Part shown: one piece after another, positions 3,500-44,499 of the stretch
How positions within the stretch are numbered: the stretch's first letter is position 1
Layout: each line of letters opens with the position of its first letter
Virus record (IMG/VR): IMGVR_UViG_3300025012_000054
Span: 1 to 64,000 of that record
Length of the DNA stretch: 64,000 nucleotides
Direction: 5' to 3' (one strand)
Source of the DNA: a virus
Position numbers and translations under genes: made by a program
Notes under the pieces: generated by a model
Told to the model about the DNA's origin: nothing
Databases searched by the model: none
Seen by the model: only the letters and a program-made list of their open reading frames with translations

Positions 3500-4585
3500 A
3501 TGGCAAGGCAATTAGCAAGTATCCAAAAAATTATAAATATTGAACCCATTGAGGGTGCTGACGCTATTGAAAAAGCAACTGTTTTAGGTTGGCAGGTTGT
3601 AATTGCTAAAAAAGACAATTTTAAAATTGGTGATATGGCAATATATATTGAAATTGATTCAATTATGCCAGAAAAACCAGAATATGAATTTCTGCGTCAG
3701 CGTAAGTTTAGAGTGCGTACAATCAAGTTGCGCAATACGATTAGTCAGGGACTAATTCTTCCTTTATCTGTTTTGCCTAAAGGGAACTATCACGAAGGAA
3801 AAGATGTGACAGAACTTCTCGCGGTGAGAAAATATGATCCGCAGGCAGAAATCGAACAACGTTTATTCGATGAAAAAAACGCAAGGGAAAAGAATAAAAT
3901 TAAAAAGTTGTTGGGGAAAATGAAGTGGTATAGAAAACTTTTTGGAAAAAAGAGAGAGGGTTTTCCCTCTTTCATAAAAAAGACGGACGAAGATCGTATT
4001 CAATTATTTCCCGATATTTGCGAAGAAGAAAAAGATACGGCATTTCAAGTAAGCGAAAAAATAGATGGTCAGAGCGGAACATATTTTTTGGTCAAAAGCA
4101 AGGGGTGGTTTGGAAAAACCAAATTTGTTTTTGGGGTGTGCAGTAGAAATCTTTTATTGAGAAAACCCGATAATAGTTCATACTGGTCTATTGCGAGAAA
4201 ATATAATATTGAACAAGTGCTCAAAAACCTTATAGATAAAAGTAATTATGTTATTTTGCAGGGTGAAATTATCGGGACTAATATTCAAGGAAATAAATAT
4301 AAGGTATCGGACTATGAATTCTTTGCTTTCAACTTAATTTTTTCTGACCAAAAGCCAGATAATGATTTGGCAAAAAGCATACTTGAGTGGCACGCAATTA
4401 AGTTTGTACCACTACTTGATAACAACCTCAAATTAAGGTCTACAATTCAAGATATGGTTGAATATTCAAATGGAAAATCTCAAATATCTGACACGTTACG
4501 AGAAGGGGTTGTTGTAAGAAATTACGAAAAGGGAATTAGTTTCAAAATTGTAAGCCCAGAATTTTTATTGAAATATAATGAGTAA
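3500..4585 (+). CDS. ATP-dependent RNA ligase, DRB0094/Rnl2-like, with N-terminal OB-like domain
   Basis: N-terminus MARQLASIQKI..IEPIEGADAIE..GWQVV..YIEIDS; ligase motifs EKIDGQS, QGEIIG, REGVVVR, FKIVS. Confidence 0.88.
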   Translation: MARQLASIQKIINIEPIEGADAIEKATVLGWQVVIAKKDNFKIGDMAIYIEIDSIMPEKPEYEFLRQRKFRVRTIKLRNTISQGLILPLSVLPKGNYHEGKDVTELLAVRKYDPQAEIEQRLFDEKNAREKNKIKKLLGKMKWYRKLFGKKREGFPSFIKKTDEDRIQLFPDICEEEKDTAFQVSEKIDGQSGTYFLVKSKGWFGKTKFVFGVCSRNLLLRKPDNSSYWSIARKYNIEQVLKNLIDKSNYVILQGEIIGTNIQGNKYKVSDYEFFAFNLIFSDQKPDNDLAKSILEWHAIKFVPLLDNNLKLRSTIQDMVEYSNGKSQISDTLREGVVVRNYEKGISFKIVSPEFLLKYNE

Positions 4586-8968: not shown

Positions 8969-10429
8969 ATGGATAAAATCAGGCGATGGAATAAACTTGC
9001 CGTGTGGCTTGCCATAAGTATTATAGACGTTGATGGCAAAACTCGCGACTATGGAACAGCGACGGATCATCGAGATTTGAGACAGCAATTGGAAACTTTA
9101 AAGTTGGTGCTGGATAAAATGCAAGAAATTGAAAAAGAAATTCCAGAGCCAGACAGTGAGTGACTAAGATGAAATATGAAGACCGCCACGATTTATTTCC
9201 GGACACCGTGATTATATCCTATCCTTTTCGATGGGGAGGGCAAAGAGGAGATGTTTGGATGTGGATGGCAGAAATGAACGGTGAGGTTTTAGACTATCAC
9301 AGCAAAGACATATTGATCATAAATGCTATTCTTGCAAATGAAAAATATGTGGTTTTACGAGTTCATAAAGATAAAGATATGACAATTACAGTAGTGGAAC
9401 ATAATGAAAACTAGATTTCATGAGGAGACACAATGTTGATGCAAGACATAAAAGCATATTGCCCTTTCTGTGAAAAAGAACAAACTTTTACCTATAAAGT
9501 TTATCTGAAGGATATTCACGGTGGCGACTATGAATATGGAACGCAACCTGGTTGTACCGTTGAGGTCGAATGGACTTGCCAAGACGGTTGGATTATAGAA
9601 ACAAAAGAATTTGATCTATAACATAAAATTATCATTTTATAAAGGAGAAAAATGAGAACTGAACTATTGGTCAAGCTAGAAAAAAACTTGTTAGAGTTTC
9701 TTGACGAGGCAAGCGGAGAATATTTTATACAAGTCAAAGAAGAACAGGTTCTTGCCAAAATTGTCGCAGATATTATAGAATCTATAAACAACGCTTATGA
9801 TACTGGCATAGAAGACGAATCATCATAATAAAATGCACATTTCATAAAGGAGAGATATGAGTGAACTAGATGAAGTTGTAAAACAGGGAGTTGAGGGATT
9901 CCTGGAATTTATACATGAACACGGATATTTCGTTTATCGTAATCGTTCGGGCGATATGCTTATTTCTGAGGATGGTAGTATTGCCACTAAAGAGACAATG
10001 AATGAGCTAATTGCTAAGTTTTTGGAAAGGCAGTAGAAGATGAAATTCGTACAAAAACTAATTGATGATACCAATAAAGGTGATTGGGACTTTAAATGGA
10101 AATATAGCGATGGATCACAAACATATACATTTAATCAACCCAAGCATTATCTCAACGGCTTGAATTTTTCGCTGGCAGCCAACAAGAAATTGCTGATATT
10201 CCCCAATGGCTATGGTCTGGAAACCACTCTGCTTGAAAATCTCAAGAAGGCTATTGATGTATCCTTGGAACGCACGGTAGATGAAAGTATGCGGCTATAT
10301 GTTGAGGGCAAAGAAATGACTCAGGAGCAAGAAGACCTGGCTGCTGAGCAGGAAGCGATGAAAGCCGCCGGTAAACCTGAAGAAAAGAAAGAACCACAAG
10401 ATAAGAAGAAAACAGTAAAGCCAGAGTAG
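8969..10429 (+). CDS. Run of short hypothetical proteins (8969-9163, 9160-9414, 9433-9621, 9652-9828, 9857-10036, 10040-10429)
   Basis: 9652-9828 (58 aa) and 9857-10036 (59 aa) fall below the track cut-off but have AAGGAG SDs and clean stops. Confidence 0.7.
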
Positions 10430-41856: not shown

Positions 41857-41885
41857 TTGACAGATTTAAGATATTGTGGTATAGT
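41857..41885 (+). promoter_or_regulatory. sigma70-type promoter of the tRNA-ribozyme-rtcB transcript
   Basis: TTGACA (41857-41862), 17 bp ending TGTGG, TATAGT (41880-41885). Confidence 0.85.
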
Positions 41886-42023: not shown

Positions 42024-42095
42024 AGCGGGTTAGAGTAGTGGATCACTCACGAGTCTCATAAACTCGATACGTTCGTTCAAATCGAACACCCGCTA
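42024..42095 (+). tRNA. tRNA with CAT anticodon (elongator Met or Ile2); CCA not encoded
   Basis: Acceptor AGCGGGT/ACCCGCT; D arm GAGT-AGTGGATC-ACTC; anticodon arm CGAGT-CTCATAA-ACTCG (CAT 42057-42059); T arm GTTCG-TTCAAAT-CGAAC; discriminator A followed by CAA. Confidence 0.92.
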
Positions 42096-42098
42096 CAA

Positions 42099-42229: not shown

Positions 42230-42550
42230 ATGTATTCTAGTATTTGGGTTGAACATATCAATATTTGCAGAATAATCCAATATATATCTATGTTACATGG
42301 ATTCGATATTGCTTTGCGAGATGCCGAAGAAGTATGGGAACATTACTCCGAATCTTTATCTGCGGGGTGGATGGTGGAAACATATGGAGATCTAGATAAT
42401 ATGTGGCAATTAATTAAGAATCAGTTTATTAGCAGCAATGAAACAACCCCAGAGTTTGATATTAGAGTCAAGGAACAGATGGTAGACACTGCTGAAATGA
42501 TTGAGAACGACGACGAATGTAATATACAATTCGTCATAAAAAATAATTAG
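42230..42550 (+). CDS. Hypothetical protein
   Basis: ORF with AAGGATGG SD, no recognised domain. Confidence 0.6.
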   Translation: MYSSIWVEHINICRIIQYISMLHGFDIALRDAEEVWEHYSESLSAGWMVETYGDLDNMWQLIKNQFISSNETTPEFDIRVKEQMVDTAEMIENDDECNIQFVIKNN

Positions 42551-42576
42551 TGTTAATGAAATTGTGCTTTTATTAA

Positions 42577-42750
42577 GTTTGTTCACAAAAGGCGTGGGTT
42601 GCCAATGAGCCGATATGCAGGCAACATCTTGTCTGGCACTTAAAGCGTCTGAAGAGAGAGTAACGCCTCGAAACCCGAAAGGGTAGCGCGGAGTATCCCT
42701 AGCCAGAGAATAACTGGATACCAGTCGGCTCACGCCTTTTGTGAATAAGC
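42577..42750 (+). ncRNA. Hammerhead ribozyme (type I) enclosed in a 25-bp terminal stem
   Basis: Stem I GCGT(42645-48)/GCGC(42686-89); core CTGAAGA (42649-55); stem II GAG-AGTAACGC-CTC; GAAA (42670-73); stem III CCC-GAAA-GGG; cleavage triplet GTA (cut after 42685). Outer arms 42577-42601 and 42726-42750 pair fully when 5 G-U pairs are allowed. Confidence 0.88.
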
Positions 42751-42775
42751 AAAGTCATATATGGAAGGAGATAAT

Positions 42776-43918
42776 TTGAAAGTTATTGACAGCGAGAAAT
42801 TACCAATCAAAATGTGGCTAACAGATATTGAAGATGGCGCTTTACAACAAGCAAAAAACTTAGCCAATCTTCCATTTGTCTATAAATGGATTTCTATTAT
42901 GCCAGATAGTCACCAAGGTTATGGTATGCCCATTGGTGGCGTCATGGCTACCCAAGGCGTGATAGTCCCAAATGCGGTTGGTGTGGACATCGGCTGTGGT
43001 ATGGCTGCGATAAAAACTTCTCTGACAGATATTTCTACAGAAGAATTAAAATTGGTTATGGGTAAAATCCGTGATGTTATTCCTGTGGGATTTAATCATC
43101 ATCCAGAAGATCAAGAATGGGACGGATTCGATGACGCTCCAGATATTCAGACCATCCAGGATCAACTTCCGTCAGCCCGAAAACAGTTGGGAACGCTTGG
43201 GGGAGGAAACCATTTCATTGAAATTCAAAAAGGATCAGATGATCATATATGGATTATGATTCATTCTGGAAGCCGTAACTTTGGCAAGAAAACCGCTGAT
43301 ATATACCACAAACTTGCGCAAAAATTATGCGACAGATGGCATGTGCAATTACCGGATAAGGACTTGGCTTTTCTTCCTATTGAGACCTCGGAAGGAAAAG
43401 AGTATTTCCAAGCAATGAAATATTGCTTAAATTTTGCCGAGGGTAACAGGGATTTGATGGCTAGACGTACTCTACTTTGCTTATCTTCTGTAGTGGATTG
43501 CTATATGGAAGATGAAATTGATATTCATCATAACTACGCCGCATTTGAAAATCATTACGGCAAGGATGTTTTGGTTCATCGTAAAGGTGCCACAAAAGCC
43601 ACTCTGGGGCTACGAGGAATTATTCCTGGTTCTATGGGAACATCCAGTTATATCACCAAAGGATTGGGTAATCCAGAAAGTTTCGAATCTTGTTCCCATG
43701 GCGCAGGTCGTAGAATGGGACGCAAGGATGCCGTAAGAACCTTAAACCTGAAAGATGAACAAGATAAAATGACTGGTATTGTGCACGGCTTGCGAGATGC
43801 CTCTAATTTAGATGAAGCACCAGGTGCATACAAAAACATTGATGAAGTTATGAAAAACCAAGAAGATCTGGTTGAAATTAAAATATCACTAAAGCCTTTG
43901 GCGTCAATCAAAGGTTAA
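42776..43918 (+). CDS. rtcB: RtcB 3'-phosphate/5'-OH RNA ligase
   Basis: MPDSHQGYGMPIG, VGVDIGCG, LGTLGGGNHFIE, HSGSR, HHNYA, HRKGAT, IPGSMG, SCSHGAGR, DEAPGAYK. TTG 42776 after AAGGAG preferred. Confidence 0.95.
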   Translation: MKVIDSEKLPIKMWLTDIEDGALQQAKNLANLPFVYKWISIMPDSHQGYGMPIGGVMATQGVIVPNAVGVDIGCGMAAIKTSLTDISTEELKLVMGKIRDVIPVGFNHHPEDQEWDGFDDAPDIQTIQDQLPSARKQLGTLGGGNHFIEIQKGSDDHIWIMIHSGSRNFGKKTADIYHKLAQKLCDRWHVQLPDKDLAFLPIETSEGKEYFQAMKYCLNFAEGNRDLMARRTLLCLSSVVDCYMEDEIDIHHNYAAFENHYGKDVLVHRKGATKATLGLRGIIPGSMGTSSYITKGLGNPESFESCSHGAGRRMGRKDAVRTLNLKDEQDKMTGIVHGLRDASNLDEAPGAYKNIDEVMKNQEDLVEIKISLKPLASIKG

Positions 43919-43944: not shown

Positions 43945-44499
43945 ATGAAAAATAAATATATTATCGAAAACGGTATAATAAAAATAATTCTCCATAGGCG
44001 AGAAGACAATGATTTAATAACGATTATTGATAAAGAAGATTTTGATAAAGTGAACGCATATGATGGTACGTTTTATGCTAGTAGATATATTAAACTAAAT
44101 GGGAAATTTTATGTAAAAATAACCTTATATCTAGGAACCATTGACGGAAAACCGAAATATAAAGTAATTAGGTTTCATAGGATTATTTTGAATTGTGAAA
44201 ACAACGATATTGTTGATCATATAAATGGAGACACTCTAGATAACCGAAAATCCAATCTAAGAATAACTGATTTTGGAGGAAACACAAAAAACAGATGTGG
44301 CGAGAACGCAAATAACACTTCTGGTGAACGCAACGTGTCTCTTATAAATGGGCAGTACGTAGTTCAAATTCAAGTCAATGGAAAAAATACTGTTTTAGGA
44401 AAATTTAATAATATCGAACAAGCGAGAATTATAGCAAACCAAGCAAGAAAAAAGTATTATGGGGACTATTCTGGAAATAGTACCACAATAGCCCAATAA
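43945..44499 (+). CDS. HNH (HNH_3) + AP2-like homing endonuclease
   Basis: FHRIIL...VDHINGDTLDNRKSNLR; C-terminal NNTSG.RNV..Y.VQI..LGKF..IEQA..AR.KYYG. Confidence 0.88.
   Translation: MKNKYIIENGIIKIILHRREDNDLITIIDKEDFDKVNAYDGTFYASRYIKLNGKFYVKITLYLGTIDGKPKYKVIRFHRIILNCENNDIVDHINGDTLDNRKSNLRITDFGGNTKNRCGENANNTSGERNVSLINGQYVVQIQVNGKNTVLGKFNNIEQARIIANQARKKYYGDYSGNSTTIAQ

Follow-up and report, generated by a model that had tools for sequence, protein, structure and literature searches.

We found that the hammerhead ribozyme in the leader of a viral rtcB gene is an optional insert in a conserved double-pseudoknot RNA of ∼110 nt. The gene lies in a 64,000-nt stretch of DNA (the window), positions 1–64,000 of IMG/VR virus record IMGVR_UViG_3300025012_000054. 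Knotted RNA and inserted hammerhead together form a 174-nt cassette (42577–42750, + strand; 172 bits and E 4e-52 with our model R1), which is placed between a 106-aa ORF (42230–42550) and rtcB. It is the sole copy in the 91,455-bp virus record. The most likely role of the element, predicted from sequence and pairing geometry, is that of a self-contained cassette for RNA processing and end protection, a reading to which we give about an even chance.

Homologues were drawn from a sensitive blastn search of named phages, three pattern scans of IMG/VR and a search of E. coli. By blastn, the element matched Enterobacter phage SDFMU_EhYP and three Pectobacterium/Dickeya phages, with copies in gene-free gaps, which either lie directly before tRNA-Met or separate the capsid region from tail tube gene A. 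These copies begin with a canonical hammerhead, followed by the conserved blocks of the window in swapped order. In total, we collected 62 distinct cassette sequences from phage contigs and enterobacterial (pro)phages. Thirty have the order of the window with a hammerhead (type B), 22 are circularly permuted with the hammerhead first (type A; E. coli lambdoid prophages and Pectobacterium and Enterobacter phages are among them), and 10 have the window order without a canonical hammerhead. One of these ten, L037, has a degenerate core (GUAAAGAG). The ribozyme-free members retain every helix and the invariant loops. At each type A locus, model R1, which was built in window order, gives two hits whose order is swapped. 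The cassette is present, unannotated, in 282 of 5,426 complete E. coli genomes and it is additional sequence relative to phage lambda, in the leader of the late operon close to lambda coordinate 44,844. One type A cassette is placed after the capsid-gene terminator of an Autographiviridae phage. A pattern scan of bacterial genome contigs (16 fixed bases, variable gap), which proved too permissive, retrieved 80 loci, none of which passed R1; all were chance matches.

The hammerhead and its homologues

The hammerhead (42645–42689, + strand) has type I topology, and its core was identified by direct reading of the sequence. CUGAAGA (42649–42655) is followed by stem II (42656–42660/42666–42669), which consists of GAG/CUC plus one G:C pair, with G42656:C42669 as the closing pair, A42659 bulged and a UAACG loop. 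The last A of GAAA (42670–42673) pairs with U42684, so that A42673 belongs to stem III (42673–42676/42681–42684; CCC/GGG with a GAAA loop). The cleavage triplet is GUA, with the predicted cut between A42685 and G42686, and stem I (42645–42648/42686–42689; GCGU/GCGC) has 4 bp. All conserved hammerhead nucleotides are present (C3 U4 G5 A6 N7 G8 A9 and G12 A13 A14), as are the required pairs A15.1–U16.1 and G10.1–C11.1, and position 17, which is never G, is A42685. A complete core on the + strand with this predicted cleavage site had been claimed in the initial annotation; direct reading, covariation and the 62 distinct relatives all bear this out.

Rfam did not recover the ribozyme. At gathering scores, the whole window yielded tRNA-Met alone and no hammerhead, and the Infernal check with Rfam hammerhead models that had been proposed for this region gave no match in a 301-nt search, even at E ≤ 10. 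Eight type B relatives likewise had no match to these models at E ≤ 1. We attribute the escape of type B hammerheads from Rfam to their stem I of only 4–5 bp. At the homologous position of L001 (type A), Hammerhead_1 scored 28.7 bits (E 3e-5; gathering score 34).

Comparison of the homologues supports the assignment. Across 34 distinct hammerheads the core is kept, with N7 being U in 22, C in seven and A in five, and position 17 being C in 21, A in 12, U in one and G in none. Stems II and III differ in sequence among these 34 and retain pairing. In our 22-sequence alignment, stems II and III each have three pairs with changes on both sides. Pairing reaches 98.8% in stem III and 95.5% in stem I, the latter being nearly invariant. 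Eight members from divergent contexts share the exact stem II sequence of the window, bulged A and UAACG loop included; it is therefore a conserved variant, not the result of decay. Judged by its homologues, the window hammerhead is genuine, with self-cleavage as its predicted activity. The downstream cleavage product would begin with GCGCGGAG (42686–42693, + strand), the near-invariant start of the second half of the knot. Within it, GCGCGGA is invariant in the 22 sequences of this alignment (A1), and GCGCGGA(G) is kept also in members that have neither a hammerhead nor a pairing partner for it, such as L031.

Pairing and symmetry of the knot

Covariation shows a conserved RNA of ∼110 nt, composed of two similar halves that together form two intertwined pseudoknots. 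Helices were assessed in the 22-sequence alignment against 500 shuffles, and a pair was counted as covarying when changed on both sides. All lie on the + strand. Hairpin H5 (42598–42603/42620–42625) is 100% paired, with 4/6 pairs changed on both sides, and hairpin H1 (42693–42698/42716–42721) is 98.5% paired, with 4/6 covarying. H3 (42607–42613/42725–42731; 100% paired, 7/7 covarying) joins a strand in the H5 loop to the tail after H1, and H2 (42632–42637/42702–42707; 100% paired, 5/6 covarying) joins a strand in the H1 loop to the tail after H5. Besides this H2 strand, the H1 loop contains the conserved GAAUAACUG. The outer closing helix, H4 (42577–42594/42733–42750), has 18 standard pairs in the window, two of them G-U; in relatives its sequence and length vary, and it is loop-closed in type A members. 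Its 3′ strand ends at 42750, exactly 14 nt before the Shine-Dalgarno AAGGAG (42765–42770), as had been annotated. For the whole structure, 87.4% of cells were paired compared with 65.9% in shuffles, and 0/500 shuffles attained any of the measures. Sliding the partner columns brought pairing down to 36–44%.

The two halves resemble each other closely. Both start with GCGYGG (GCGUGGG and GCGCGGA), and each has a 6-bp hairpin with a G:C outer pair, a C:G inner pair and a pseudoknot strand three nucleotides into the loop. Two closing helices, H4 and the helix that is stem I of the hammerhead, would each lead from the end of one half into the start of the other and are probably symmetry equivalents. 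Either closing helix could open to the transcript or carry a cap, in the form of a small loop or a hammerhead core. In the window, H4 appears to be open to the flanking transcript, with the other closing helix serving as stem I of the type-I-topology hammerhead. This single arrangement would explain the ribozyme-free forms as well as types A and B.

The initial annotation had nested the hammerhead in a 25-bp stem with five G-U pairs. This stem can be drawn and is part of the minimum free energy fold of the 191-nt region, which is much more stable than that of shuffles (z = −6.85). However, the conserved fold accommodates no more than the outer 18 bp. The inner seven pairs occupy nucleotides of H5 and H3, show no covariation, are pairable at 70.1% (identical to the shuffle mean of 70.1%) and cannot form in L001. 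Since they compete with H5 and H3 and pair at shuffle level, we set the conserved outer helix H4 at 18 bp and rejected the inner part as a conserved helix. Two extensions of stem I had also been suggested. That through ACT/AGT overlaps the covarying H1 (G42693 and T42694). The UCUGGC/GCCAGA pairing is real and covaries, but it is the pseudoknot H2 into the H1 loop and not a plain extension of stem I. The alternative pairings that had been read as a conformational switch turned out to be helices H3, H5 and H1, which coexist in the two pseudoknots. In the window, the fold with the 25-bp stem has an energy of −71.9 kcal/mol, and the conserved fold −48.3 or −52.1 kcal/mol before the pseudoknot helices are added. 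Once these are counted, the two folds would be energetically comparable, and a transient alternative fold in this copy is conceivable.

Genomic neighbours and possible roles

Upstream of the cassette are a tRNA-Met (CAT) gene (42024–42096, + strand; Rfam tRNA 58.4 bits, also found by ARAGORN) at a distance of ∼480 nt and, just before the cassette, a weak sigma-70-like promoter match (42501–42530, + strand; 10/12 hexamer matches) of a kind whose site count was not above that in shuffles. No intrinsic terminator was found between the cassette and rtcB. After transcription, the hammerhead would cut between A42685 and G42686 and separate the rtcB message, which would start with a 5′-OH, from the upstream RNA (tRNA-Met and the 106-aa ORF, or a short leader from the nearby promoter), which would end in a 2′,3′-cyclic phosphate. 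Both new ends would be locked in the knot by 35 bp (H4, 18 bp; H3, 7 bp; H2, 6 bp; stem I, 4 bp), and the Shine-Dalgarno, 14 nt beyond H4, would stay free on a structured 5′-OH rtcB leader. That an outer stem encloses the hammerhead and could hold both predicted cleavage products had been suggested before, and the pairing geometry supports it; we infer end protection solely from this geometry. The cassette would provide a host-independent processing site with both new RNA ends shielded from nucleases, and rtcB would simply be the gene that follows it in this phage. This reading extends the proposal of Perreault et al. (2011) that phage hammerheads, located between genes of phage operons, process long transcripts (PMC3088659). 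The bulged A in stem II, the stem I of only 4 bp and the failure of Rfam models to detect the window copy and eight type B relatives count against it.

Processing and end protection alone leave two features without explanation, namely the large number of invariant unpaired nucleotides in the knot and the retention of ribozyme-free knots in tRNA arrays. We tentatively suggest that the knot may be a structured phage RNA of a new class, which has a biochemical function of its own and takes the form of a fused pseudo-dimer (GCGYGG halves, 6-bp hairpins and swapped tails). Such a build would explain why both circular permutations occur and why a hammerhead may be present in, or absent from, one closing helix. 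Record G016 carries two hammerhead-bearing copies in tandem. If the RNA is a pseudo-dimer, tandem cuts of this kind would release a unit-length RNA, with its 5′-OH and cyclic-phosphate ends juxtaposed in stem I and ready for self-ligation or for circularisation by RtcB.

The main alternative, which we consider less likely, is that phage tRNA islands encode the knot as a trans-acting small RNA with a function of its own, and that the hammerhead only matures it, either by exposing the invariant 5′-OH GCGCGGAG end or by freeing the knot from the transcript. Roles could include binding or sequestering a host or phage factor, tRNA biology or counter-defence, and the adjacency of rtcB would be incidental or stem from a shared RNA island. 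Members of the family occur in lambda-type late leaders, in the capsid–tail gap and inside tRNA arrays. In agreement with a small RNA, tRNA ends directly bound the cassettes L030, L192, L047, L057, L002, L009 and L056, and 16/62 cassettes have a same-strand tRNA within 300 nt, but the other 46/62 have none in that range. The retention of all helices and invariant loops in ribozyme-free members points the same way, as does the conservation of GCGCGGA(G) without a pairing partner in L031. ROOL and GOLLD RNAs, which likewise have no known function and for which a role of this kind is suspected, share this niche (PMC12286853). However, in type B members with a hammerhead, cleavage would split the knot into two chains and not release it. 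The knot also has no known partner, and all-against-all clustering of 1,224 flanking ORFs revealed no conserved neighbouring gene, with families recurring only in near-identical lambdoid prophages. The same clustering also produced a spurious antisense ORF across the RNA itself.

The gene after the cassette encodes an RtcB that looks intact from its sequence. rtcB (42776–43918, + strand) has a TTG start 5 nt after AAGGAG, with an in-frame ATG at 42761 as the longest ORF start. Its product matches PF01139 over the full length (profile positions 1–426, E 1.4e-113). The motifs DIGCG, GGGNHF, IHSGSR, HHN and SHGAGR align with Pyrococcus horikoshii RtcB (1uc2), and the metal-binding Asp/Cys/His residues and the guanylylated His of the family are present. 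The initial annotation was therefore right to place a hammerhead in the leader of an apparently intact rtcB. Hammerhead cleavage products, with their 2′,3′-cyclic phosphate and 5′-OH ends, are RtcB substrates, and RtcB has reportedly been employed in one study to capture ribozyme cleavage products.

From this chemistry, a cleave-and-repair circuit had been proposed, in which RtcB re-ligates its own cut leader and rtcB expression reports ligase activity. Re-ligation of the predicted ends is chemically possible, the cut halves would remain paired and the enzyme looks active. Moreover, the cassette lies upstream of rtcB on the same strand, within ∼10 kb, in all three RtcB-bearing phages seen (the window, L037 and L034), which are too few to interpret; a loose association with RNA-repair or tRNA islands is conceivable. 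A dedicated functional link to rtcB, however, was not supported by comparison with the family. Only in the window, among the 62 distinct members, does the cassette directly precede rtcB. Few cassette-bearing phages encode RtcB at all: of 15 sampled records, two do, in neither case with the gene adjacent to the cassette, and 13 do not. Nine of the 15 are at least 90% complete, and RtcB is present in one of these and absent from eight. A tblastn search of loci L001–L065 with the window RtcB detected a single further RtcB, encoded 5.7 kb downstream of the cassette in L037, which is the member with the degenerate core.

The syntenic relative L017 amounts to a natural experiment. The order of its HNH, AAA_24 and primase-helicase genes is that of the window, and its cassette, at the same position, is 95.6% identical over 181 nt (42570–42750), compared with 67% for the primase-helicase gene 4 kb downstream. 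The genes after its cassette are Mom-like, unknown and ThyX-like, and not rtcB. The cassette is thus under strong constraint that is independent of rtcB. A ligase would also not be needed for repair, since a tightly clamped hammerhead can re-ligate by itself. We found nothing specific in the literature on a link between phage hammerheads and RtcB. Together, these results make the repair circuit improbable, and the placement of the cassette next to rtcB looks incidental.

We consider it slightly less probable still that the knot senses a ligand or factor and switches the hammerhead, as a natural allosteric ribozyme or through a conformational switch that uses the 25-bp stem. The double pseudoknot with its many invariant unpaired nucleotides is aptamer-like, and the comparable energy of the two folds in the window would suit a switch. 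However, knots exist without a ribozyme and in tRNA arrays with no gene to regulate, and the extended stem, with its shuffle-level pairability and no covariation, is impossible in type A members such as L001. Finally, a chance resemblance or a decayed, inactive relic, to which the lack of an Rfam match in the window, the short stem I and the bulged stem II might point, is highly improbable given the intact core, the identical stem II in eight members from divergent contexts, and the purifying selection indicated by covariation and by the identity of the L017 cassette relative to its primase-helicase gene.

Comparison with known RNAs

The window hammerhead shares its core, three-stem junction, triplet rule and intergenic location in phage operons with the bacterial and phage hammerheads (Rfam clan CL00010; PMC3088659). 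It differs in its stem I of 4–5 bp, which runs straight into a ∼110-nt double pseudoknot, in a scaffold that also occurs permuted and without a canonical ribozyme, and in that Rfam misses type B. The pseudoknots described in the 2011 hammerheads are short loop contacts and not an independent domain (PMC3088659).

ROOL and GOLLD RNAs resemble the knot in their genomic niche beside or inside tRNA clusters and in their elaborate pseudoknotted structure. They are found in phages and prophages, often near tRNA islands, and they have no known function or protein partner (PMC12286853). They differ in length, at ∼580 to >800 nt compared with ∼110 nt for the knot, and the cited passages mention no association with hammerheads (PMC12286853). 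For the knot domain in the window, L001 and L002, searches against the families of Rfam 15, with ROOL, GOLLD and Drum among them, gave only chance-level matches at E ≤ 10. Drum RNA was rejected as a relative, with no Rfam match and no ribozyme association described in its source paper.

Two further systems offer partial parallels. In T7-like phages, polycistronic RNA is cut at structured intercistronic RNase III sites, and stable structures remain at the resulting ends. The similarity in intercistronic processing would be a functional analogy only, because the cassette is predicted to cleave itself with no host enzyme, and both end chemistry and fold differ. Y RNA/YrlA is a structured non-coding RNA with a long terminal stem that is found next to rtcB in bacterial rsr-yrlBA-rtcBA operons, and it shares with the cassette its non-coding structured nature, the long closing stem and the rtcB neighbour. 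We rejected this assignment, since there was no Rfam Y RNA match and no Ro/TROVE gene (PF05731) in the 91-kb record, which is 68% complete. No T-arm-like GGTTCGAATCC motif was seen in the window element and, unlike Y RNA/YrlA, the cassette family has no link to rtcB elsewhere.

Knowledge of phage hammerheads goes back to 2011. Rfam 15 contains neither the knot nor its fusion to a ribozyme, and it lacks the circular permutation and the ribozyme-free members as well; the knotted cassette is widespread and apparently not previously described. Our literature search found no account of these features and nothing specific on a tRNA-array RNA of this shape; it may be one of the 10,006 unnamed candidates in a phage RNA catalogue (PMC10690425). 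The case is also a warning that function should not be read from one neighbouring gene. It also bears on the purpose of bacterial and phage hammerheads; in this family, the ribozyme is joined to a partner structure that is strongly conserved. Since that partner also occurs permuted and ribozyme-free, clear testable hypotheses follow, and the presence of the cassette in lambda-type E. coli prophages and in cultured phages of Pectobacterium and Enterobacter makes them testable in standard laboratory systems.

Transcription unit and downstream genes

In the window, the strongest sigma-70-like promoter match in the region lies at 41857-41885 on the + strand (11/12; TTGACA and TATAGT separated by 17 nt, with an upstream TG), ∼140 nt upstream of the tRNA-Met gene. 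A single transcript may run from tRNA-Met through the 106-aa ORF and the cassette into rtcB. Directly after rtcB is an HNH-type endonuclease gene (43945-44499, +), and an HNH/AP2 gene occupies the equivalent position in L017 (2990-3517), a syntenic relative of the window. In the interval from the cassette to the HNH gene, cargo is swapped: the window carries rtcB, and L017 carries Mom-like and ThyX-like genes.

Antisense reading frames over the cassette

A 107-aa ORF (42410-42733, -) overlaps the window cassette in antisense. Similar antisense ORFs from L006, L017, L051 and L063 group together solely because the RNA is conserved. The window ORF is spurious. Gene callers may annotate such an ORF over the cassette. 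In Pectobacterium phage Pappous, a 'hypothetical protein' is annotated over the cassette copy.

Variation in structure and hammerhead core

The variability of the cassette family exceeds the coverage of the search patterns used here. Four loci (L187, L189, L193 and L194) have an additional hairpin (GGUGGGG...CCCCACC) separating the H2 strand from hammerhead stem I, and their H5 loop has CA, not CAA. The hammerhead core also varies. In the L037 cassette (9462-9621, -), it is degenerate, with GUAAAGAG replacing CUGANGAG; this phage is among the few cassette-bearing phages that also encode RtcB, with rtcB 5.7 kb downstream of the cassette on the same strand. Core position 4 is C (CCGAUGA) in the L051 cassette (3541-3703, +), and in L036, L038 and L053 an A faces an A at the site of the expected G10.1-C11.1 pair. 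Ribozyme activity is uncertain for these four copies (L051, L036, L038 and L053).

Cassettes in E. coli and in tandem

A search of 5,426 complete E. coli genomes found the circularly permuted, hammerhead-first form (type A) in 282 of them, chromosomal in every case (e.g. NZ_CP042899.1:1499804-1500064) and without any annotation at all. Compared with phage lambda, the E. coli cassette is an additional block in the late leader, near lambda coordinate 44,844.

The virus record of L032 (G016) has two identical cassettes in tandem, each with a hammerhead (L200:1480-1770 and L201:1-125), with a period of ∼226 nt and the second copy crossing the end-start junction of the record. Since both copies are identical, the arrangement is possibly an assembly artefact at a repeat. 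In a genuine tandem, cleavage at both hammerheads would free a unit-length RNA in type A order, with its 5′-OH and cyclic-phosphate ends brought together in stem I.
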